From NCBI GenBank assembly GCA_041671225.1, contig JBAZBY010000001.1:961130-1025129 (forward strand): a stretch of 64,000 nucleotides of DNA, read 5' to 3'. Under the pieces are notes generated by a model that worked only from the letters and a program-made list of their open reading frames with translations, made no database searches and was not told where the DNA came from. A program made the translations under genes and the position numbers. This document shows, piece after piece, positions 8,981 to 59,513 of the stretch (the first letter of the stretch is position 1; the number at the start of each line of letters is the position of its first letter). The stretch comes from Patescibacteria group bacterium (GTDB lineage: Bacteria > Patescibacteriota > Patescibacteriia > JBAZBY01).

Positions 8981-11224
8981 ATGCAGCGTTTCTTTCTTGA
9001 CATCGAAAAACTCCACGTTGGGGACCAAAACGCAAGTGCGCATGCTTCACACGTTTTTCTCGCCCAACCCACTCCGCTCGAGGAGCAAGCTCTTGGGCGT
9101 CTTTTCATATTGGTTGATATTGCGCATCCAGATGAAAACGCAACGAACATTTTGCGTACCATACAAAATGAGCTAAAGGAGTCCTATTACCACACAGAAG
9201 AGCTTGCCATTAGCACGGCATTTGAGGAGGCACTGAATCACGTTAACCGCAAACTCCATAGCTTGGTGCGCGAAGGCATAACGGACTGGCTGGAAGAATT
9301 CTCTGCTTTGATCGGCGTGATCCATGGCGAGCACATCATCTTCACGCACCTCGGCCGCATGGATATGTTTCTTATCCTTGGTCGGCGCATGGTGAATGTG
9401 CTGGATTCTCCGGAACGCGATGAACCTGCAAATCCTCTCAAGATTTTTTCTTCTATTGTTGAAGGTGAACTCACCGAGGGTTCATCAGTATTAATGACAA
9501 CGTCAACGCTGCTGGATTATTTCTCGCAGGAAAAACTCCGACAGCTCATTGTTGGCCGCCCGACACATGAAGCCATCACTGCACTCGAGCAACTCCTGCA
9601 TGAGCATCAACATGATGCGGAATTTCTTGCGATTACCGCGCGCCTCATCCCCACGCATGATGAAGTGCCGATGTATCGCGTACCGGCAAATGAACAGCCT
9701 CGACGCGTACCAACGGGTTCTGACGCATCAATGGATGATCTCATCATCCGCGAGAACAAAACAAACGAACTACTCGCGCCGTCTATCCTCGCAGAAGCGG
9801 GAAAGCGCAGCAGCAAAATTGCGCATGATTTTGCATCATTTTGGCGCACGAAAATTCAGCACAAACCAGAGCGCCGCATACATGCGGGCGGCGTGATTCG
9901 CTCACCGCACAGTATGTCTATCGAACGGCCGCACTACTTCCTGCAATTCGTTGCACTCCTTGAACGCGGTTTGCGAATATTGGTGGGCGGGGGTGTGCGT
10001 GGTGTTCAAAAACTGCGAAAGGAAAAACCTATTCATGAACGCGCACTCGAACTGCCAAAGGAAACAGAGGGACTTATATCCAAGCAAGTGATCCGCTTTC
10101 AGCATCTCCCAAAAAACCGGAAGATAATACTCATGATAGCGCTCGTTGCGCTCGTTGTTTTTGCGCAAAGCATTGTTTGGCTCGGGCAACGTTCACGCAA
10201 TGCGGAACAAACTGAACAACTCGCACTGACATTCGTGAATATTGAGGAGAATCTTCTCGATGCGGAAACCTCTCTGAGTTTTGGCGACAATACCGGCGCG
10301 CAGAGCGTGCTCCGCGAAAATATTCATCTCCTTGATGATGCGCATATATCAAATAAAAACGATCGTGAGCGGGCTGACGATCTTCGCACACGCACCGATG
10401 TGCTACTGAATGAAACGCGCAACATCCACACCATAGATACTATGGTTGTAAAAGCGGATTTTACGAGCTTAAGCCCAGATGCGCAAGGGACAAAACTCGT
10501 TGCAGTAGGAACGCTTCTCTATGCATACAACCCGAATACCAACGCACTCTACCGCGTGGGCACTGATGAGCTCGAACTGACAGTTATTGCACCGCCCGAC
10601 TTTGCGCTTGGTGATGTGCGAATCATGACCACTGATGGTGAACGCATACTCCTTCTGAATAACGACAATCTCCTCTTTGCATACTCCCCTGACGATGATA
10701 CATGGAGTACGCTTTCATTCCCCATTCCTGCTGGTGAGCATAACTTCACTGCCGCAACAACATTTCTGGATCGCCTCTATATGGTTGATGCAAACGAAAA
10801 TCAAATCTTCCGCTTCCCGGCGGCAGCAACGGGATTTGGTGGCTCATCCACTTGGGTGCGAGATGAAGTCATTGCATTCACAAATGCGATTGATATCGAT
10901 ATCGACGGCAATGTCTATATCACTTTTAATGATGGAACTATTCAGCGTTACTTCCAAGGAGCACGTGACACATTCTCACTGAAGGCGGTTGATCCTGAAC
11001 TGACGGTTGCCACTGCGATGTGGACAATTGAAGGCAGTGAGGGTATCTATATTCTTGATGGCCCAGGCAAACGCGTTGTGCGCTTTACAAAAGAGGGTCA
11101 ATTTGTGGAACAATACAGCATCACATCAGAAGCGCCGCTACTTGGCTTCTCTGTTGATGAAGTAAACCAGCGCATATTCATCCTGAACGGCCAAACCGTC
11201 AGCGAGTTTTCCATTTCAGAATAG
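8981..11224 (+). CDS. Hypothetical single-pass membrane protein with C-terminal beta-propeller-like (NHL/SMP-30-like) repeats
   Basis: Central TM IILMIALVALVVFAQSIVWLG. C-terminal repeats such as DIDIDGNVYITFNDGTIQRYF and YILDGPGKRVVRFTKEGQFVEQY. Confidence 0.45.
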   Translation: MQRFFLDIEKLHVGDQNASAHASHVFLAQPTPLEEQALGRLFILVDIAHPDENATNILRTIQNELKESYYHTEELAISTAFEEALNHVNRKLHSLVREGITDWLEEFSALIGVIHGEHIIFTHLGRMDMFLILGRRMVNVLDSPERDEPANPLKIFSSIVEGELTEGSSVLMTTSTLLDYFSQEKLRQLIVGRPTHEAITALEQLLHEHQHDAEFLAITARLIPTHDEVPMYRVPANEQPRRVPTGSDASMDDLIIRENKTNELLAPSILAEAGKRSSKIAHDFASFWRTKIQHKPERRIHAGGVIRSPHSMSIERPHYFLQFVALLERGLRILVGGGVRGVQKLRKEKPIHERALELPKETEGLISKQVIRFQHLPKNRKIILMIALVALVVFAQSIVWLGQRSRNAEQTEQLALTFVNIEENLLDAETSLSFGDNTGAQSVLRENIHLLDDAHISNKNDRERADDLRTRTDVLLNETRNIHTIDTMVVKADFTSLSPDAQGTKLVAVGTLLYAYNPNTNALYRVGTDELELTVIAPPDFALGDVRIMTTDGERILLLNNDNLLFAYSPDDDTWSTLSFPIPAGEHNFTAATTFLDRLYMVDANENQIFRFPAAATGFGGSSTWVRDEVIAFTNAIDIDIDGNVYITFNDGTIQRYFQGARDTFSLKAVDPELTVATAMWTIEGSEGIYILDGPGKRVVRFTKEGQFVEQYSITSEAPLLGFSVDEVNQRIFILNGQTVSEFSISE

Positions 11225-50715: not shown

Positions 50716-50744
50716 TTGACAGAAATACATAGATATGGTATGAT
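50716..50744 (+). promoter_or_regulatory. Near-consensus sigma70 promoter P1 (TTGACA-17-TATGAT) at the island edge
   Basis: TTGACA 50716..50721, 17-nt spacer, TATGAT 50739..50744. Confidence 0.55.
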
Positions 50745-50820
50745 GCTCGGTTACACTGAAATGGGGGGAAATAGTGCTGGTTGAATACCTGTCAGCATCT
50801 ATTGTTCTATCTCCAAGAAC

Positions 50821-50849
50821 TTGACAAATTGGTGATAAAGTGGTATTAT
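50821..50849 (+). promoter_or_regulatory. Near-consensus sigma70 promoter P2 (TTGACA-17-TATTAT)
   Basis: TTGACA 50821..50826, 17-nt spacer, TATTAT 50844..50849. About 25 nt upstream of the first copy of the conserved island leader element. Confidence 0.55.
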
Positions 50850-50873
50850 ATGCTGTTACGGTAAAAGACCGCT

Positions 50874-50950
50874 CATTACAAGAAAGCATTTCAGCGAGGA
50901 ATCTACGGTATCACACCTTGTGTGGGGTACTGTGGATCCCTCGCTGATCA
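50874..50950 (+). repeat. Island leader element copy 1: CATTACAA-N8-TTCAGCGAGGA-[37-nt loop]-TCCCTCGCTGA
   Basis: Seen directly. The same architecture recurs at 51642..51720, 52498..52592, 53754..53835, 54908..55047, 56146..56230, 57199..57264 and 58205..58290. Confidence 0.6.
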
Positions 50951-51051
50951 AAAGGCGAGACAACGCATCGGCAAATACGCCGATGTAACACCCCCCTACG
51001 GTTTAACCCCGTAGCGTTGTACCAGAACGAAATCTGGTAGAGGCAATAACG

Positions 51052-51423: not shown

Positions 51424-51641
51424 CTCCTCACTCGTTCACTCTTCGCCGAAGACACGGCCTAGAGCCCCACCCTGGGGATCAAGGGGAGGCTGGCATGAGC
51501 CCGCAGCCGATGCGTCGCAGCATACACGACGCAAAGTGGAGCACCACACGGGCAACGTTCTTCGGGAGAGACGCACAATGCTTCGGCAACGTGCGTCTCC
51601 CCTTCACCTGAGTTAATCACGCACTGTGGTTGGTTCAGAAG

Positions 51642-51720
51642 AAGGTGTTCATTACAACAATTTCAGCGAGGAATCTACGGTATCACGCCTTGTGCGGGGT
51701 ACTGTGGATCCCTCACTGAA
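51642..51720 (+). repeat. Island leader element copy 2 (GGTTCAGAAGAAGGTGTTCATTACAA...TTTCAGCGAGGA...CCCTCACTGAA)
   Basis: ~90 % identical to copy 1 over the hairpin. Lies in the 1.2-kb gap between island genes 1 and 2. Confidence 0.6.
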
Positions 51721-52610
51721 GCTCCTAACAATCAATACGTCAGCGAAGGAAACGAGGGGGTGAGTCCCTCCACTCTCCCCCTCTTTCCCCTCGCTGGCAA
51801 TAACGTTTAGCGAGGCTCCGGCATCCGTCCACAGGATTGATGCCAAGTCCAAGGAGGGCTCCGATGGAAAAGAAGCAGCCCACAAGCAGCACCAAGAAGG
51901 CCCCAGACGGTTACCGCCACCTGACCCGCGCGGAGGCCGATGCCATCTGGCGTCGGGCATTCTGGCTCGCTTGGACCTCGCGGTACTAGCGAAGTTCTCG
52001 AGGGAAAGCTCTCACAACAATTGTCCTTTGGCATCTGGCGCGGCAAGCAAAACCCGCGCCTCCCTCTCCAGCACAGAAGACTTCTGTTCTGAAGAGGGAT
52101 TCTCCTACGCCCCGTCTTCGCAAAGCTTTGACGGGCTACGGCGAACAAGTGCTCATTCTCAATCTTATGAGGGAGCGGAAACGGCGGTTCAAGAATTAAG
52201 CCTCCTCGGCCGCACGCCCGCTCCCTCACCCCCCAATGATCCTGCAACCGCAGAATCAACAGTCCCCATGGGGAACGGCATACGAGGTGGATAAGTGAAT
52301 GCTCTTCACGCCCCTCGAAACCGTTCCCCAAAACTTTCGCTCGCACTGTTATGGAGGGGGATGCCGAAACGGCTTTTTGCCGCACGGCTCACGGCAACAG
52401 GAGCAGACAGCCTGGTTCACACTCGGCTGCCCGCCTCCGACTGCCACGCGGGAATGTGCATTCGTGCACCAACTCCCGCATCACCTCCAGAACAGTCCGT
52501 ACGAAGAAGGTTCATTACAATATGATGGTTTGTACCACGACCCTTATAAGAGGATGCTTCACGTCCTTTCATAAGGGTCGTATGGTACGACTTCTGGCGA
52601 TCACCGGCCG

Positions 52611-53207
52611 ATGGTGAAAAAGGAACGGCAATCCGTGAAAAAAAAGATCGTGTTGGCCGGTCCACCTCGGTCCGGCAAGTCCTGTATGCGTGAGGGGTTG
52701 AAACAAGCCCTTTTCACAATCCCCGGCTCGCCGTATCCGTATGTGATTACGGCCTGCCCGGACGGTGAAGGGGCGTGGTTCCAGGAAACTGTGAACAACA
52801 ACCCCGAGCTTGCGGCGGCGTGCAAGGCGGCCTACAAAGCCAAGTTCACGCCGGAGTTCGTCGAGCGCATCAAGACTTCGGTCGAGAGGTGCTCACTCGA
52901 GCTCACGCTCGTGGACATCGGGGGCATCACCTCCGTTGAAAACGAGCAGATCTGCGCCGCGGCGACGCACATCGTCATCCTCGCGGGTGACATGAGCAAG
53001 GTCGCCGAGTGGCGCACGTTCGCGGCAAAGCTCGGGCTTACCGTGGTTGCGGAAATCCATTCCGACTACCACGGAACCGAGGACACCGTTGAGCGCGTTA
53101 GCTCTGACGGAATCCTCCGGGGGTCCGTGCATCACCTCGAACGGGGTGAGCAAATTGCGGATCGTCCGATGATCCGCGCACTCGCCGAGCATCTCCTCTC
53201 CATCTGA
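52611..53207 (+). CDS. P-loop NTPase / small kinase-like protein (island gene 2)
   Basis: Walker A IVLAGPPRSGKSC. LVDIGG (Walker B / switch-II-like). ~190 aa. Alternative GTG start at 52635 has a better RBS. Confidence 0.5.
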   Translation: MVKKERQSVKKKIVLAGPPRSGKSCMREGLKQALFTIPGSPYPYVITACPDGEGAWFQETVNNNPELAAACKAAYKAKFTPEFVERIKTSVERCSLELTLVDIGGITSVENEQICAAATHIVILAGDMSKVAEWRTFAAKLGLTVVAEIHSDYHGTEDTVERVSSDGILRGSVHHLERGEQIADRPMIRALAEHLLSI

Positions 53208-53285
53208 GTTTCTGAAGGAGGGCAACACCTACCCTCTCAACCCGACACACGCCGGCTCAAGGTGAAGCTGGCACTGGAGGGCAAC

Positions 53286-53630
53286 ATGCCCGTGTACAAG
53301 ATCGACCGAGTCGCCGTAACCGCCACCTCTGCAGCCGTCCCCGCCGACCTGTTCAAGGTAGGCTTCGGGGACCCCGCCCAGAACGATGCCATCGTTCGGG
53401 CGGCCGAAATCCGCATCCCCGAGCTCGGCGAGCTCGGTGGCGAGCTGGCCCTCATCAACGGGCCGGCCAGCCTCCCCGTGGCGGTGGTCATCGCCCACCG
53501 TCTACTCCACGCCTACGGCGCCATCGGGGTCTTCGACCCCAAGATGAGCGCCTACGTGGTTGCGGCGGCCCACGGCGACAAGTTCGCTGTGGGGGACCTG
53601 ATCCCCGCCGAAACCGTCGTCGAGTCGTAG
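53286..53630 (+). CDS. Hypothetical small protein (island gene 3), probably co-transcribed with the P-loop gene
   Basis: GGAGGG 6 nt upstream of ATG 53286. 114 aa with no recognisable family. Only 55 nt after gene 2 and no leader element between them. Confidence 0.45.
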   Translation: MPVYKIDRVAVTATSAAVPADLFKVGFGDPAQNDAIVRAAEIRIPELGELGGELALINGPASLPVAVVIAHRLLHAYGAIGVFDPKMSAYVVAAAHGDKFAVGDLIPAETVVES

Positions 53631-53753
53631 ACGACCATCGTTCACCTCTCCTAACCTAGCATCCGCTGGGTGGCAGATAGGAGATTCGTCCTTTCCGGAG
53701 CGCAATCTGCCTGCGCTCCGACTTTCCGAGCACATCACAATACTCGTGGTGCG

Positions 53754-53835
53754 TTCAGAAGGTTAAAATGTTCATTACAACTATTCAGCGAGGAAATCTG
53801 TTGTGCTATATGCACGATGGGTTTCCTCGCTGAAG
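53754..53835 (+). repeat. Island leader element copy 4
   Basis: GTTCAGAAGGTTAAAATGTTCATTACAACTATTCAGCGAGGA-[loop with GTGCtatatGCAC]-CCTCGCTGAAG. Confidence 0.6.
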
Positions 53836-53986
53836 TTCGTCGGCTCCGGTGAGGTTTGCCCCGTTCCGAGGGGATTGCGCGACGCAATGCACTGCCCCGC
53901 TTGCAGGGGATTGAGAATGGAGGGCTTCACGCCCGCAATTACCCTACACAGGTGCTCTAGAAAATGAGCACGGAAAGAGAACGGAC

Positions 53987-54820: not shown

Positions 54821-54907
54821 CCCCCTCCTCGGCAGCCGGAAATACCGGATCCCGCCTTCGCCTTTCGGGCTACGGCGGATAAAGAAGATTGATCTTTTCT
54901 CCTGTGG

Positions 54908-55047
54908 GGAGCGTGACTGCCAACGCTCCTCCCAACACCCGAGTCCCGGATATACATCCGAGGTTCAGGAAGTTGGAATGATCTTTACAAATACACTTCA
55001 GCGAGGAGATCTGTACAGAATATTTCTGTATGGGTTCTCTCGCTGAA
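54908..55047 (+). repeat. Island leader element copy 5, extended module: GGAGCG-TGACTGCCAA-CGCTCC / TCCCAACACCCGAG / hairpin / TTCAGGAAGTTGGAA / CTTTACAAA / TTCAGCGAGGA-loop-TCTCGCTGAAG
   Basis: Pairs with copy 6 at 56146..56230 through compensatory substitutions (GGAGCG/CGCTCC versus GGAATG/CATTCC; CGGATatacATCCG versus TTGAATCatagATTCAA). Confidence 0.65.
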
Positions 55048-55239
55048 GCCATATCCAAAGGCCAACGCGAGTGCTGCCCCGAGGCGTGGGGATTTCGTCA
55101 GGTTCTTGTTCTTGCCCCGTATGTGGGGATTGCGTAGAAAGCGCTTTCCACGAACGTGGAGGCAAAGCAACCTGTGCGGTAACCCGCACGTCGAGCCCAA
55201 GCCAAACCGAAAGGTACGGGCGAAGGGCAAGGAGTAGCC

Positions 55240-56082
55240 ATGTCAGTATATCGCGTGTTCACGATTTCTTCCGGCGCAGTCAGTGAAGGCGCCAAAATCG
55301 ACATCCTCCCCCTGAAGGGCGCGGGAATTACGATTCCCGCCGTCATCATCGGCGAGGAGGGGCGAGGTCGCGAACGCGGCGTCGTCCCCGTCGGAAACCC
55401 GCCGACCGTCCCCTGCCCGCGACGTGGGCAGGAAATTTCCGGCTCGACTCTTGCCAGATTCAAGGCGCCGGAAAGGCCGGCGACCTGCGAGTGTGGCGTT
55501 GCGCTTCCCCTGTGGGGGAAGCGTCCGGACGATTCCGGGTACTGGTTCGTCCAGCACCCGGATACCGGAAGCGTCCCCAGCCGCCTGATGGCCGCCGAGA
55601 TCGGGGCCACCAAGGCGGGAAAGCCCAAGTTCTGGGCAAAGCCCGCGGCGGACACGACGGAAAAGGTCCTCGTCGTATTCCGAACCCGGATGGGGTACCG
55701 GGGTGGAAACGACCACACCGGCGACCGGAACGGCTTGTTCCGAGTCGGTGACTCCTGGGACCCCTGGGCGGCGTCGGGGTTGACGCTCGAGGAGGCGCAG
55801 GCTCTCTGCGCCGAGCACGAGGTCGACTCGTCGCGTATCCGCCCGGACGGCTTCCTGCCGTTCCCGGGCGAGGTTATCACCCGCGGCTACATCGCCCAAG
55901 GCGGCGCGGGTCGGATGGGCGGCGGCGAACAGCTCGTCGCGCTCGTCCCGAAAGACGTCGTCTTCAGGACGTCCTACTCCGGCCGACTCTACGGCGGCCC
56001 CGGCGCCCACTACTACGTGTGGGACGGCGAGAAGGTTCTCGCCGCCACGTGGGAAGAAAGGTCGGCGGCCGACCTGTTCTAG
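55240..56082 (+). CDS. Hypothetical protein (island gene 5)
   Basis: AAGGAG RBS. 280 aa, Gly/Pro-rich. No family recognised. Confidence 0.45.
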   Translation: MSVYRVFTISSGAVSEGAKIDILPLKGAGITIPAVIIGEEGRGRERGVVPVGNPPTVPCPRRGQEISGSTLARFKAPERPATCECGVALPLWGKRPDDSGYWFVQHPDTGSVPSRLMAAEIGATKAGKPKFWAKPAADTTEKVLVVFRTRMGYRGGNDHTGDRNGLFRVGDSWDPWAASGLTLEEAQALCAEHEVDSSRIRPDGFLPFPGEVITRGYIAQGGAGRMGGGEQLVALVPKDVVFRTSYSGRLYGGPGAHYYVWDGEKVLAATWEERSAADLF

Positions 56083-56145
56083 CCTCCCCTCCTCAGGCAG
56101 ACCGGAAATTCCGGATGAGGAGCAACGCTCTTTTACCCCTGCGGA

Positions 56146-56230
56146 GGAATGTGACTGCCAACATTCCTTCCAACACCCGAGCTTTGAATCATAGATTCAA
56201 GGTTCAGGAAGTTGGAAAGTTCATTACAAA
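56146..56230 (+). repeat. Island leader element copy 6 (extended module, see 54908..55047)
   Basis: GGAATGTGACTGCCAACATTCC-TTCCAACACCCGAG-CTTTGAATCATAGATTCAAGG-TTCAGGAAGTTGGAAAG-TTCATTACAAA. Followed by further hairpins to ~56330, including a 13-bp stem CCCTCCTTTTTAG...TTAAAAAGGAGGG. Confidence 0.65.
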
Positions 56231-56420
56231 TCAATTCTACTTCACCCCCATGAGATATTCTGCAGGGGTTCACTTCCCTCCTTTTTAGCCCTTTCATATG
56301 AGAGTGTTAAAAAGGAGGGAGGTACGGCACCGTGGTGGTGCTGTGGTCCCTTCGGTTCCGAAGGAGTACGTCCTGTGATGGGACACGCTCATTTCGGCCC
56401 CGCTTGGCTCGGGGTAACTC

Positions 56421-56918
56421 ATGAAGGAGGAAGCCATGTTCCAGATTCTCTTGACCCGCTCGCATTTTGAAGCCCTCGTTCTCGCCGCGACGGACATCGC
56501 GGCGAACGGTCGGCCATGGGGGCCAGTCGTAACCGAGACCGGGTGGGCGACCCGGTTCGATGGTGGCGGCAACGTCCGCACCCCCAGCGACTTCGTCTCG
56601 CTATACGGCGAGGCAAGTAGGTGGGGGAAAAAGGAAGGGCACGAGCCCTGCTTGTACGCACTCGTGGAGTGCGATGCCTGGTCGCACGACCGCGACCGGG
56701 CGTGCCGCTACTTCCTGCGGCACAAAACGTTTGCCCAGAGCGACCTCGTCCTGGACAACGACGGACTCGACCATGTCGAATCCGCGGCGACTCGCGGTGG
56801 CGAATGGGAGGTCGTCGCCGAGACGGACGTGCCTGAGCACGCCCGAAAGGTGATGGAGAAATCCATCGCCACCGTTCGCGAGCTCTTCGGGCAGGGAGGA
56901 GACTTCTTCGAGGTCTAG
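56421..56918 (+). CDS. Hypothetical protein (island gene 6)
   Basis: GAAGGAGG RBS. 165 aa. Followed by post-stop hairpin CCTCCTCGGCAGTGAGGAGG and a TGACTGTCCA-loop hairpin (GGACG-TGACTGTCCA-CGTCC). Confidence 0.45.
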   Translation: MKEEAMFQILLTRSHFEALVLAATDIAANGRPWGPVVTETGWATRFDGGGNVRTPSDFVSLYGEASRWGKKEGHEPCLYALVECDAWSHDRDRACRYFLRHKTFAQSDLVLDNDGLDHVESAATRGGEWEVVAETDVPEHARKVMEKSIATVRELFGQGGDFFEV

Positions 56919-57593
56919 CTACCCTGCCCCTCCTCGGCAGTGAGGAGGCACAGTACACCCGAGGACGTGACTGTCCACGTCCTCACAACTACAGCACCGG
57001 AGGTGCTTGATGAGACCGCTGCAGTTGTAGCGGGCCAAGGGGAGTGATTCTCTCCAGATGGGGCCCTCAAAATACCGCCAAACATAAACATCCCCGCTGC
57101 AGGGCACGCAGCACGCGGGAGGGGCAGCAACGAACAACCGCTGCCTCTCCCCACCCTTCCGAACGTTGAACACTTGTTCAGCCTTCAGACAGGTGATCGC
57201 TCATTCTCAACACTTCAGCAAGGAACTTTGAACCAACGTGTTTGGCGCAAAGTCCTTTGCTGAAACGGATACGCAAGGGTACGTATTCCATGTTCGGGAG
57301 AAACGAAACGACCCATGGCGCTTACACGCACGCCGACGGGCACACGCCTCTCAGGTGGAATACCGATGTATGGAGAGGACTAGTCCGAACAAAATCTAGT
57401 CCTCTCCGCCTTTCCCTCAATATGGTCATTTACAAATCATTGACAAATCGTGCAAATATGCTAGGGTAAGCTGTTCATTTTTGTGCAGCGTGCACGTCTG
57501 ATGGCAACAAAAAAGCCGCAAGACGTGTCTGCTGCACCGCTCTCACAGCAGATGGCATCATGCCCTTTTCACATGAGAGCAAAGGAGGAGCAC

Positions 57594-58088: not shown

Positions 58089-58204
58089 CGTCCGCTCCTT
58101 TGCAGGATAACTACCTGCCGTACAGCAAGATTGGGAGACGCTTGTGGTCTCCCCTTTTCCGAGCCACAGAACCACTCATCCGGCTATGCCGGATTCGGGT
58201 TCTG

Positions 58205-58290
58205 GGTTCAGAAGAGGTTGCCCTTTACAAATATTTCAGCGGGGGAATTCTGTACCTCATGTTTTGCGGTGCAGTATTCCCTCGCCGAAG
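58205..58290 (+). repeat. Island leader element copy 8 (GGTTCAGAAGAGGTTGCCCTTTACAAATATTTCAGCGGGGGA-loop-TCCCTCGCCGAAG)
   Basis: Same architecture as the other copies, with a variant stem. Confidence 0.55.
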
Positions 58291-58347
58291 TAGTAGTACG
58301 CGAGGCATCATCCGCGGCAACGGCTGCGGACAAGGAGGGTCTCACCT

Positions 58348-59321: not shown

Positions 59322-59406
59322 CTTCAACGGCTGACACCTCAGCTACGCCCACTGCTCCTTCATCCCTCAACCGTGTTTGGGACGGTACCGCATAAAAAAC
59401 CGTCCA

Positions 59407-59437
59407 CCCGAAGCGCATGCGCTCCGGGTTTTTTCTT
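59407..59437 (+). terminator. Intrinsic terminator closing the island
   Basis: CCGAAGCGCATGCGCTCCGG followed by GTTTTTTCTTT. Confidence 0.55.
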
Positions 59438-59513
59438 TACAAAACCTTCACGCTCACATATACTCATTGCAATTTTCCCATGCCACCCCCTGCCTGATTG
59501 GAGGTATGCTCCT

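Follow-up and report, generated by a model that had tools for sequence, protein, structure and literature searches.

The intergenic gaps of a one-directional 9-kb gene array (~50.7-59.4 kb of the window, by which we mean the whole 64-kb stretch of DNA analyzed) carry a structured RNA motif without a match in Rfam 15, in a little-studied lineage. The array genes are all co-oriented on the + strand, which gives the array a cassette-like look; GC content is 60% compared with 49% for the genome, and each gap is 340-675 nt long, in an ultra-small genome. In our best reading, which we hold with moderate confidence, the motif is an intercistronic module for RNA end formation, processing and stability on a multi-gene transcript; on that reading it is most likely a cis-acting element of the sense-strand RNA.

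From 5' to 3', the order of elements in a gap is a post-stop hairpin (SL-A), SL-B, SL-C, a linker and SL-D. SL-B is a GC-rich hairpin with the base GGAG.../...CUCC, and directly adjoining it is SL-C, an irregular helix of ~20 bp (18 modelled pairs) in which P1 and P3 are variable in sequence, whereas P2 retains the sequence CCGAG/UUCAGG, which includes a G·U pair and a C×A mismatch. The linker, UC(A/U)UUACAA, is A/U-rich and unpaired, and 3' of it lies SL-D, a long hairpin of 22-26 bp (21-25 pairs) that begins 3-8 nt after the TTACAA box. SL-C and SL-D both show covariation; the loops of SL-B and P3 vary freely. GGCAG(A/U) in SL-A is complementary to CUGCC in the SL-B loop, a possible tertiary (kissing) contact that extends over 7 bp in IG3 (P 0.004; P 0.16-0.44 in the other copies). 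The features along the array are as follows, with model matches (R1, R2 and R3) in parentheses.

50716..50849, + strand: two tandem sigma-70-type promoters at the array head, TTGACA-17-TATGAT and TTGACA-17-TATTAT, both with TG (promoter scan)
50871..50953, + strand: IG0, linker TCATTACAA and SL-D (TTCAGCGAGGA...), without SL-B and SL-C (R3 64 bits; fold)
51562..51725, + strand: IG1, SL-B/SL-C/linker at 51562-51659 and SL-D at 51647-51725 (R1 E 8e-7, R2 E 6e-19, R3 70.7 bits)
52443..52590, + strand: IG2, a degenerate module with linker GTTCATTACAAT and a different long hairpin at ~52532-52590 (weak: R1 E 4, R2 E 0.43)
53672-53678, + strand: IG3, GGCAGAT, the complement of the SL-B loop over 7 bp (P 0.004)
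53689..53839, + strand: IG3, SL-B (loop AATCTGCC)/SL-C/linker at 53689-53782 and SL-D at 53770-53839 (R1 E 1e-9, R3 73.7 bits)
54821..54850, + strand: IG4, SL-A, CCCCCTCCTCGGCAG and a CCGGAAATACCGG hairpin, 90% identical to 56086-56116
54906..54931, + strand: IG4, SL-B, stem GGGGAGCGT/ACGCTCCTC and a loop with ACTGCC; this is hairpin 1 of the sequence-only reading discussed below
54932..54976, + strand: IG4, SL-C, with P1 CCAAC/GTTGG, P2 CCGAG/TTCAGG (C×A mismatch, G·U pair) and P3, which is hairpin 2 of that reading
54977..55052, + strand: IG4, linker AATGATCTTTACAAAT (unpaired in the fold) and SL-D at 54996-55048, ~23 bp (71.3 bits)
56086..56122, + strand: IG5, SL-A, CCTCCTC-AGGCAGA-CCGGAAATTCCGG-A-TGAGGAG (sequence and fold)
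56144..56231, + strand: IG5, SL-B at 56144-56169, SL-C at 56170-56215 and linker at 56216-56231
56272..56323, + strand: IG5, a long hairpin at the SL-D position but different in sequence, its 26-nt arms 85% complementary
56927..56985, + strand: IG6, SL-A CCTCCTC-GGCAGT-GAGGAGG and an SL-B-like GAGGACG-TGACTGTCCA-CGTCCTC (partial model match at 56961-56984, E 0.08-0.23)
57111..57269, + strand: IG6, full module, SL-B/SL-C/linker at 57111-57211 and SL-D at 57199-57269 (R1 E 4e-6, R3 71.9 bits)
58127..58294, + strand: IG7, SL-B/SL-C/linker at 58127-58232 and SL-D at 58220-58294 (R2 E 3e-6, with this copy left out of R2 training; R3 64.4 bits)
59372..59444, + strand: IG8, the array end, with an SL-B-like hairpin GGGACGG...CCGTCC, a terminator and linker CTTTACAA (weak model match, E 0.3-1.9)
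59401-59428, + strand: IG8, an intrinsic terminator at the SL-C position, a GC-rich hairpin and T6, CCCGAAGCGCATGCGCTCCGGG-TTTTTT

Two of these copies had been described in a sequence-only reading of the same DNA. Its first hairpin was confirmed as GGAGCG-TGACTGCCAA-CGCTCC at 54908-54929 and GGAATG-TGACTGCCAA-CATTCC at 56146-56167, and YCCCAACACCCGAG, the second hairpin (CGGATatacATCCG / TTGAATCatagATTCAA), TTCAGGAAGTTGGAA and TTACAAA were all found as described. Pairing was indeed kept while sequence changed: between IG4 and IG5, four pairs of the structure differ on both sides and five on one side, none is broken, and each change keeps or gains pairing. The second hairpin is the tip (P3) of the ~20-bp SL-C helix. 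The flanks that were thought able to pair, CCAAC/GTTGG, are paired in minimum-free-energy folds, and the post-stop elements are real (54824-54835, 56090-56122 and 56929-56948). A hairpin GGACG-TGACTGTCCA-CGTCC, put forward as a third copy, does exist, at 56961-56985 rather than 56975-56996; however, it resembles hairpin 1 only (E 0.08-0.23), and the full module of the same gap lies at 57111-57211. Beyond that reading, the family to which its two copies belong has one member per gap, and the module runs on through the conserved linker into the long downstream hairpin.

A covariance model of structure and sequence, trained solely on these two copies (54900-54992 and 56138-56231), identified four further full copies in the window, for a total of six (E 1e-32 to 7e-4). 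All six lie within the array on the + strand; each occupies a gap of its own, in a fixed order relative to the stop and start codons. Outside the array, the 64-kb window gave no match with E < 0.05, the remaining matches of this strength being the minus strand of the same copies. The module model had no match in 470 kb of unrelated control DNA, and the short motifs alone, taken without structure, showed no enrichment. From TCATTACAA onward, IG0, which adjoins the promoters on their downstream side, matches the IG1 copy with 89% identity. In the Rfam search of the window, only three tRNAs reached the gathering score; relaxing the threshold to E ≤ 5 for the array, and to E ≤ 10 for 246 nt of IG4, added nothing beyond spurious matches to miRNA hairpins, HgcC and lncRNAs.

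Every intergenic region has a far better fold than its dinucleotide shuffles (z -5 to -10), and RNAfold, applied to single gaps with no alignment, recovered the same helices each time. The six copies have 96.8% of their pair cells paired, compared with 73.9% in shuffles (0/500 reach the observed value) and 32-49% with slid partners, and 17 of 27 pairs show double compensatory changes. In an alignment of 15 copies from four genomes, which was fitted to the model's structure and so has inflated pair counts, 94.7% of cells are paired, 26 of 27 pairs are compensatory, and the covariation score is 0.784 versus 0.237 in shuffles; both the slid-partner controls and the independently obtained folds of single sequences speak against a covariation artifact. 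The strong covariation in both the local and the four-genome alignments, a comparison that the sequence-only reading had proposed, supports its view that selection acts on structure rather than sequence and that the copies are not a decaying repeat.

Strand comparisons speak to the level of selection. The plus strand pairs in 96.8% of cells of the six copies versus 86.4% for the minus strand, and model scores for the plus strand are two to five times those for the minus strand. Sixteen cells hold G·U pairs, one of which is kept in 5/6 copies; since these cells make the sense-strand fold the better one, they indicate RNA rather than DNA, and RNA-level selection is favored over DNA-level selection. 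The sequence-only reading had left open RNA-level or cruciform/recombination-level selection: the G·U cells, the strand bias and the presence of ribozymes at the same position in relatives favor the former, whereas the cruciform or recombination-site option found no support.

Relatives were reached solely via homologues of a 280-aa protein encoded in the array; in three other Patescibacteria, related arrays also carry the motif between their genes. The linker is kept across genomes whose proteins are just 50-57% identical, as CTCTTTACAACT in L098 and CTCTTTAATAAT in L073. L098 resembles IG0 in having the linker and SL-D arrangement without SL-B and SL-C. P2 and linker sequences differ between genomes (CAGA/UCUG in L073, CUCAG/UUGAG in L074), and few unpaired nucleotides are conserved across them, the common denominator being essentially two helices, GAG/UUC and an A/U-rich linker. 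The SL-D model is detectable in this genome only, with no convincing homologue in relatives; by inspection, relatives show analogous long hairpins. A descriptor search for hammerheads, negative for the 64-kb window and for the 470 kb of control DNA, identified five distinct ones across L005, L074 and L075. These three loci have four intercistronic type III hammerheads that each begin 0-1 nt after an SL-B-like GAGG...CCUC hairpin, and at L074 1362-1459 the motif model aligns SL-B together with the hammerhead. Type II hammerheads (L080 and L081) and a twister-sister ribozyme (L096) occur near the same 280-aa gene family. The SL-C position is occupied by a hammerhead in relatives and by a terminator in IG8; that the module, ribozymes and an ordinary terminator all share one position suggests that the trait selected there is RNA end formation. 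Where hammerheads flank a single gene, their presumed role is to process long transcripts (PMC3088659), and unrelated ribozyme classes occur together in these gene neighborhoods (PMC6765202, PMC5737381).

We read the array as a single transcript on the basis of the promoters at its head, the hairpin and T6 at its end, and the same layout in L073, where one 11-of-12 promoter precedes the array and none lies in the module-carrying gaps. A scan for canonical promoters, the TTGACA/TATAAT type that this lineage uses, found strong ones at the array head and none on the + strand in internal gaps. Further promoters are one at 59436, which starts in the last linker, and one read by eye (~57441) before the pilin gene. 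In IG0 and in the L098 leader, the linker box lies ~20-25 nt downstream of a strong canonical promoter and lacks the TTCAG part, and this placement right after promoters fits an element of the RNA 5' end rather than a promoter.

Under this layout, a multi-gene transcript would start at the promoters at 50716 and 50821 and end at the terminator at ~59401-59428. A host nuclease, of the RNase III type or the RNase E/Y type, would cut it in SL-C or the linker. The upstream cistron would then end in SL-B (perhaps SL-C), which would block 3' exonucleases, and the downstream cistron would start with SL-D, which would shield its 5' end; the outcome would be separate mRNAs, each with its own stability. 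The gaps contain what an RNase III-type signal calls for, an irregular helix of at least ~20 bp between cistrons of what would be one transcript. None of the genome's RNase genes is visible within the 64-kb window.

This arrangement recalls the intercistronic RNase III processing signals R0.3-R1.3 that Dunn and Studier reportedly described in the early region of phage T7. Both have strong promoters at one end of a co-directional gene array and a ~20-bp irregular hairpin with an internal loop in each gap, and the products here would likewise retain a 3' hairpin. The present gaps differ in that SL-C adjoins a further GC hairpin (SL-B), the linker is conserved and single-stranded, and SL-D adds another long hairpin. 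They also belong to a Patescibacteria host, and cleavage is here a prediction from the layout. REP/BIME palindromes and 5' stabilizer hairpins, such as the malE-malF REP and the ompA leader, also offer a parallel, as hairpins in operon gaps can block exonucleases, set differential mRNA stability and act in RNA. Unlike REP/BIME elements, the module is restricted to one array instead of being dispersed through the genome; it is composite and far longer, its stems covary where those elements are sequence-conserved palindromes, and no RAYT transposase is in view.

An unlikely alternative is that each gene is its own transcription unit, with SL-B/SL-C as a U-tract-poor terminator or insulator, TTCAGR...TACAAN as a non-canonical promoter and SL-D as a 5' stabilizer. 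TTCAGR stands 16 nt upstream of TACAAN in three copies (IG3, IG4 and IG5) and may be a weak internal promoter, L073 has TTCTGA ~17 nt upstream of AATAAT, SL-D starts 3-8 nt past the TTACAA box as if transcripts began there, and IG8 has a true terminator at the same position. However, judged by the sigma-70 definition (-35 and -10 hexamers 16-18 nt apart, the latter with A as its second and T as its sixth base), the promoter reading of TTCAGR...TTACAA was not kept as the principal explanation. TTCAGR and the box are separated by 13 nt in IG1 and IG7, compared with 16 nt in the others; the -10 box lacks T at position 6 in 6/7 copies, and no GTTCATTACAA hexamer has A at position 2 together with T at position 6. 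The scan that detects the flanking canonical promoters of this lineage detects none in the internal gaps, and in IG0 and L098 the box follows a canonical promoter.

Less probable still is that the module is a platform for an RNA-binding protein encoded in the array (e.g., a Csx3-like or AAA protein) that controls translation or stability, with cleavage not obligatory. The conservation of the P2 internal loop and linker alongside covarying helices is typical of RNA recognized by proteins, and the AAA, Csx3 and 280-aa genes are the sole genes common to motif-bearing arrays. Against this, P2 and linker sequences differ between genomes (L073, L074), the ribozymes and terminator that share the position are indicative of end formation, not binding, and no RNA-binding domain was identified in the array's unknown proteins.

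We consider it very unlikely that SL-B, SL-C and the linker are a new class of self-cleaving ribozyme that replaces hammerhead and twister-sister in these arrays, and give as little weight to the broader form, in which SL-A, SL-B, SL-C and the linker are such a class or an obligate RNA cofactor for cleavage. The position is one shared with three known ribozyme classes in related neighborhoods, an argument of the kind by which twister was discovered (PMC6765202), and the possible contact between GGCAG(A/U) of SL-A and CUGCC of SL-B, 7 bp in IG3, would suit a tertiary fold. However, that contact is individually significant in IG3 alone (P 0.004), few unpaired nucleotides are conserved across genomes, the SL-B and P3 loops vary freely, and a search with 246 nt gave no match to any known ribozyme model even at E 10. 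The window yields no type III hammerhead by a descriptor with CUGANGA and GAAA cores, stems I/II/III and a UH cleavage site. ACUGCCAA and UCCCAA may resemble the rice twister; however, when judged by P1-P2-P4 helices, a T1/T2 double pseudoknot and conserved loop nucleotides, a twister was rejected, because the P2 partner AGUC of IG4 is absent from IG5, Rfam twister models give no match and the fold is unsupportive. A small ORF was likewise discarded, as a 1-nt indel in hairpin 2 puts its GTG-initiated frame out of register between IG4 and IG5.

A DNA-level element, whether a folded single-strand recombination site (attC-like or IS200/IS605/REP-like) or MITE subfamilies that mobilize cassettes, is the reading to which we assign the least probability, for no recombinase, integrase or transposase Pfam domain was called within ~8 kb on either side and RNA-only elements, the ribozymes and terminator, occupy the same position. 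In its favor are the cassette-like, co-oriented array with its deviating GC content (60% vs 49%) and genes that vary between relatives, structure that is more conserved than sequence, a CCAAC...GTTGG similar to attC R''/R' boxes, and a TTAC 12 nt past the hairpin foot. Like integron attC sites, the modules keep structure rather than sequence and follow each co-oriented gene once; unlike them, they lie in long gaps with further conserved RNA elements. An attC is defined by R''(RYYYAAC)/R'(GTTRRRY) and L''/L' boxes, a bottom-strand fold, and an intI integrase or an attC array. Here, CCAAC/GTTGG is confined to IG4 and IG5, the other copies having covarying pairs instead (GACTTTC/GAAGGTT, CTTTTC/GAAGAG and TTC/GAA), and the 16 G·U cells, one conserved, favor the top strand. 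The IS200/IS605 reading of TTAC was rejected on the lack of a nearby transposase domain and on the co-oriented, one-per-gap copies. Subfamilies of MITEs or of transposon terminal inverted repeats would be expected to be scattered over varied contexts and orientations and to show target-site duplications. These copies are instead co-oriented, occur once per gap in the same order with respect to stop and start codons, and are absent from the rest of the 64 kb; in other genomes they take the same position. Pattern scans of the genome, metagenome and viral contigs for copies gave, on inspection, only chance matches, and blastn against phage records found nothing.

The RNA processing and stability module that we prefer shares its gene neighborhood and position with the clustered hammerhead, twister and twister-sister ribozymes found on either side of single genes in prophage-like arrays (PMC3088659; PMC6765202), along with their presumed role, in which long transcripts are cut to single-gene mRNAs. 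It differs from them in lacking a recognizable catalytic core and an Rfam ribozyme match, and its cleavage, if any, probably depends on a protein nuclease. A covarying RNA module without a recognizable ribozyme core that sits where ribozymes sit provides a link to the biology of the bacterial hammerhead, twister and related ribozymes that cluster around certain phage-like gene arrays; were a new ribozyme or cofactor the true explanation, it would have replaced hammerhead and twister-sister in a ribozyme-associated neighborhood of Patescibacteria and phages.

Only the AAA, Csx3 and 280-aa genes are common to motif-carrying arrays; the other inter-module genes vary among genomes, and the module may on this account have a role in gene shuffling. 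The AAA and Csx3 genes are a split pair, and the 280-aa protein is all-beta. The module marks this conserved gene set of unknown function, which is also found on viral contigs.

Between ~51.0 and 59.3 kb, all genes of the array lie on the plus strand. Their intergenic gaps (IG0 to IG8) are unusually long (340-675 nt), and GC content is 56-65% across 51-59 kb vs a window mean of ~49%. The genes are as follows:

array, +, a 123-aa ORF and a ~50-aa ORF
52611-53207, +, AAA half of a split Csx3-AAA pair (PADLOC Csx3-AAA, E 7e-60)
53262-53630, +, Csx3 half of the split pair (PADLOC, 1e-16)
array, +, three proteins of 277, 280 and 165 aa, no family assigned
array, +, a type IV pilin-like protein and two further unknown proteins

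The 280-aa product (55240-56082) is identical to a hypothetical protein annotated by NCBI on a 1.03-Mb contig of a Patescibacteria-group MAG. The examined parts of the window showed no CRISPR array and no cas genes.

From 5' to 3', a gap runs through hairpins SL-A, SL-B and SL-C, a linker, hairpin SL-D, more small hairpins and a ribosome-binding site, and every gap folds far better than dinucleotide shuffles (z -5 to -10). SL-A is a post-stop hairpin (CCUCCUC...GAGGAGG) with GGCAG(A/U) unpaired. SL-B has a GGAG/CUCC base and a variable upper stem and loop, and SL-C adjoins it directly. Within SL-C, P1 varies (CCAAC/GUUGG, GACUUUC/GAAGGUU, CUUUUC/GAAGAG or UUC/GAA), P2 is conserved (CCGAG/UUCAGG, with a C×A mismatch and a G·U pair kept in 5/6 copies), and P3 (hairpin 2) differs in sequence in every copy. 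The linker is single-stranded UC(A/U)UUACAA. SL-D forms a hairpin of 22-26 bp, whose base is UUCAGCGAGGA/UCCUCGCUGAA in six gaps; RNAalifold predicted 21 pairs, 9 of them compensatory, and R3, a covariance model of linker plus SL-D, scored 64-74 bits on the plus strand vs 22-33 bits on the minus strand.

In minimum-free-energy folds, the post-stop, anti-Shine-Dalgarno-like CCUCC base-pairs with GGAGG, the ribosome-binding site of the following gene (54821-54829 with 55231-55235; 56083-56087 with 56426-56430), closing the entire gap into one domain; this predicted closure may serve as a coupling device or be an artefact of folding. The 277-aa and 280-aa genes each have, in the leader downstream of SL-D, two small hairpins built as TGCCCCG-N5-6-GGGGATTG (53857-53877, 53893-53913, 55075-55095, 55113-55132).

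Short motifs alone showed no statistical enrichment; therefore, the more-than-chance evidence rests on structure. All sequences quoted in the sequence-only reading were found in the window, and its two main copies (in IG4 and IG5) do show compensatory change, with 4 stem pairs altered on both sides, 5 on one side and 0 broken. Its third copy is present at 56961-56985, not 56975-56996, but only the SL-B part is matched by our covariance models of SL-B, SL-C and linker, R1 and R2. R1 (94 positions, 27 pairs, ending with the linker that follows SL-C) was trained on the two main copies only and applied to both strands of the 64-kb window at every position. Beyond its two training copies, it identified these:

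51562-51659, +, IG1 copy (R1 E 8e-7)
53689-53782, +, IG3 copy (R1 E 1e-9)
57111-57211, +, IG6 copy (R1 E 4e-6)
58127-58232, +, IG7 copy (R1 E 7e-4)

R2, whose training left IG7 out, recovered the IG7 copy at E 3e-6. Neither model matched outside the array in the 64-kb window at E <0.05; below that value, the only additional matches were to the copies themselves on the minus strand, and 470 kb of unrelated DNA gave 0 matches at E<=1. IG2 and IG8 hold weak, degenerate versions. The copies form a family, each gap holding a single member, and no Rfam 15 family matched the module at any threshold tried.

DNA pattern scans of genome, metagenome and viral collections returned chance matches only; relatives were reached through homologues of the 280-aa protein (340, mostly in Patescibacteria; closest 59% identical). 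In gaps of the homologous arrays, R2 matched at E 1e-7 to 2e-3:

L073: 866-975, 1999-2111, 3083-3191
L074: 610-707, 2475-2571
L098: 5720-5818, 6810-6914, 7253-7350

The linker is kept across these genomes (CTCTTTACAACT in L098, CTCTTTAATAAT in L073). Only AAA, Csx3 and the 280-aa gene are common to related arrays, the remaining genes differing, and the AAA and Csx3 pair is linked to the 280-aa gene in L077, L074 and L005. The 280-aa gene family is also present in 17 IMG/VR viral contigs and one terminase-bearing contig. Arrays from several genomes share the octamer CTTCACGC(C) in their intergenic leaders (window 52304, 53925, 59446; L073 2187; L074 1583; L096 4836; L098 5946), although overall it is only mildly enriched (26 in 345 kb of related DNA vs 11 in 470 kb of control DNA). 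At 299-560 of L073, upstream of the array promoter, (A)CGTTAGG repeats occur in a run, and a long, near-perfect palindrome (GGGTTTAGGGTATAGGGTTTAGT...ACTAAACCCTATACCCTAAACCC) follows them.

Aligning the copies in this genome and its relatives extended the double-sided changes to nearly every pair.

Pairing in alignments fitted to the model, which favours pairing (6 window copies; 15 copies from 4 genomes)
Cells paired: 96.8%; 94.7%
Cells paired, shuffled partners: 73.9% (0/500 reach observed); 64.3%
Cells paired, slid partners: 32-49%; 33-50%
Pairs with double-sided change: 17/27; 26/27
Covariation score, observed / shuffled: 0.72 / 0.26; 0.78 / 0.24

The low slid-partner controls, together with alignment-free single-sequence folds that recover the same helices, argue against an artefact. 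Because 16/154 cells are G·U, the sense strand is 96.8% paired vs 86.4% for the other strand, which points to a transcript rather than a cruciform or single-stranded DNA; of the RNA-level or cruciform-level selection originally proposed, the former is favoured. The module is a real, selected family of sense-strand RNA structures.

The main interest of this RNA module is that it occupies a position common to three classes of self-cleaving ribozyme. Complete-core type III hammerheads occur in L005 (n=2), L074 (n=2) and L075 (n=1); all four intercistronic ones begin 0-1 nt after an SL-B-like GAGG...CCUC hairpin, and R2 aligns SL-B plus hammerhead at L074 1362-1459. The fifth (L005 5552-5603) lies directly 3' of a canonical promoter, paralleling IG0 in the window. 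Among other loci of the 280-aa family, type II hammerheads in L080 and L081 score above the gathering score, as does a twister-sister in L096 (40.8 bits vs 34). An intrinsic terminator (a GC hairpin and then T6) takes the SL-C position in the last gap of the window. Based on these placements, the position behind SL-B is filled by SL-C, a self-cleaving ribozyme or a terminator, depending on the array. This fits published neighbourhoods: the processing of long transcripts is the presumed role of clustered hammerheads flanking single genes (PMC3088659), and the same gene neighbourhoods hold unrelated ribozyme classes (PMC6765202, PMC5737381).

The type III hammerhead at L005 7989-8041 extends over what is probably the true start codon of the 280-aa homologue, with the ATG within stem II (CCAGAAATGG) and the translation MAKQSIFTI aligning with the family N-terminus; self-cleavage would leave a ~30-nt leader with a 5'-OH end, consisting of the ribozyme body. 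Hairpin 2 of IG4 (CCCGGATATACATCCGAGG, 54944-54963) closely resembles stem I of an L074 hammerhead (CCTCGGATATGTGTCCGGG, 1398-1417), a likeness that hints at shared ancestry of SL-C and hammerheads.

The best reading of the family is as a new form of intercistronic processing and stability signals. With middling confidence, we propose an element that both generates RNA ends and protects them. In this model, the upstream cistron would be capped at its 3' end by SL-B, perhaps together with SL-C, cleavage would take place within SL-C or the A/U-rich linker, and SL-D would shield the 5' end so created. To the observed fold, strand, placement and equivalence of position, this proposal adds a presumed cut and nuclease.

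A terminator plus a non-canonical promoter in each gap is possible but unlikely. A promoter scan identified two strong canonical promoters at the array head (50716, 50821) and none in the internal gaps; in L073, a single 11-of-12 promoter precedes the array, and the module-bearing gaps have none. As a promoter, the TTACAA box lacks a valid -10 hexamer, its spacing from TTCAGR is inconsistent (13 nt in two copies, 16 nt in others), and in IG0 and the L098 leader it occurs without TTCAG, 20-25 nt downstream of a canonical promoter. On these grounds, we take the linker to be an RNA element. That the module serves as a protein-binding regulatory platform seems to us decidedly unlikely. We doubt still more strongly that it is itself a new self-cleaving ribozyme, as few unpaired nucleotides are conserved across genomes and SL-A:SL-B loop complementarity is weak, being individually significant in IG3 only (7 bp, P 0.004). 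A DNA recombination or mobile-element site is highly improbable beside a strand difference that points to a transcript.

IG2 (51990-52610) is a 621-nt stretch without a called gene, in which the module matches weakly. Its minus strand folds better than its plus strand (MFE -303.9, z -10.95 vs -262.8, z -8.55), and it has an internal post-stop-like element, TAA-GCCTCCTCGGCCG, at 52197-52212; the stretch could be what is left of a decayed gene unit, or an antisense RNA. Far from the array, an isolated weak R3 match (19.7 bits, E 0.006) lies at 9741-9808 on the minus strand.
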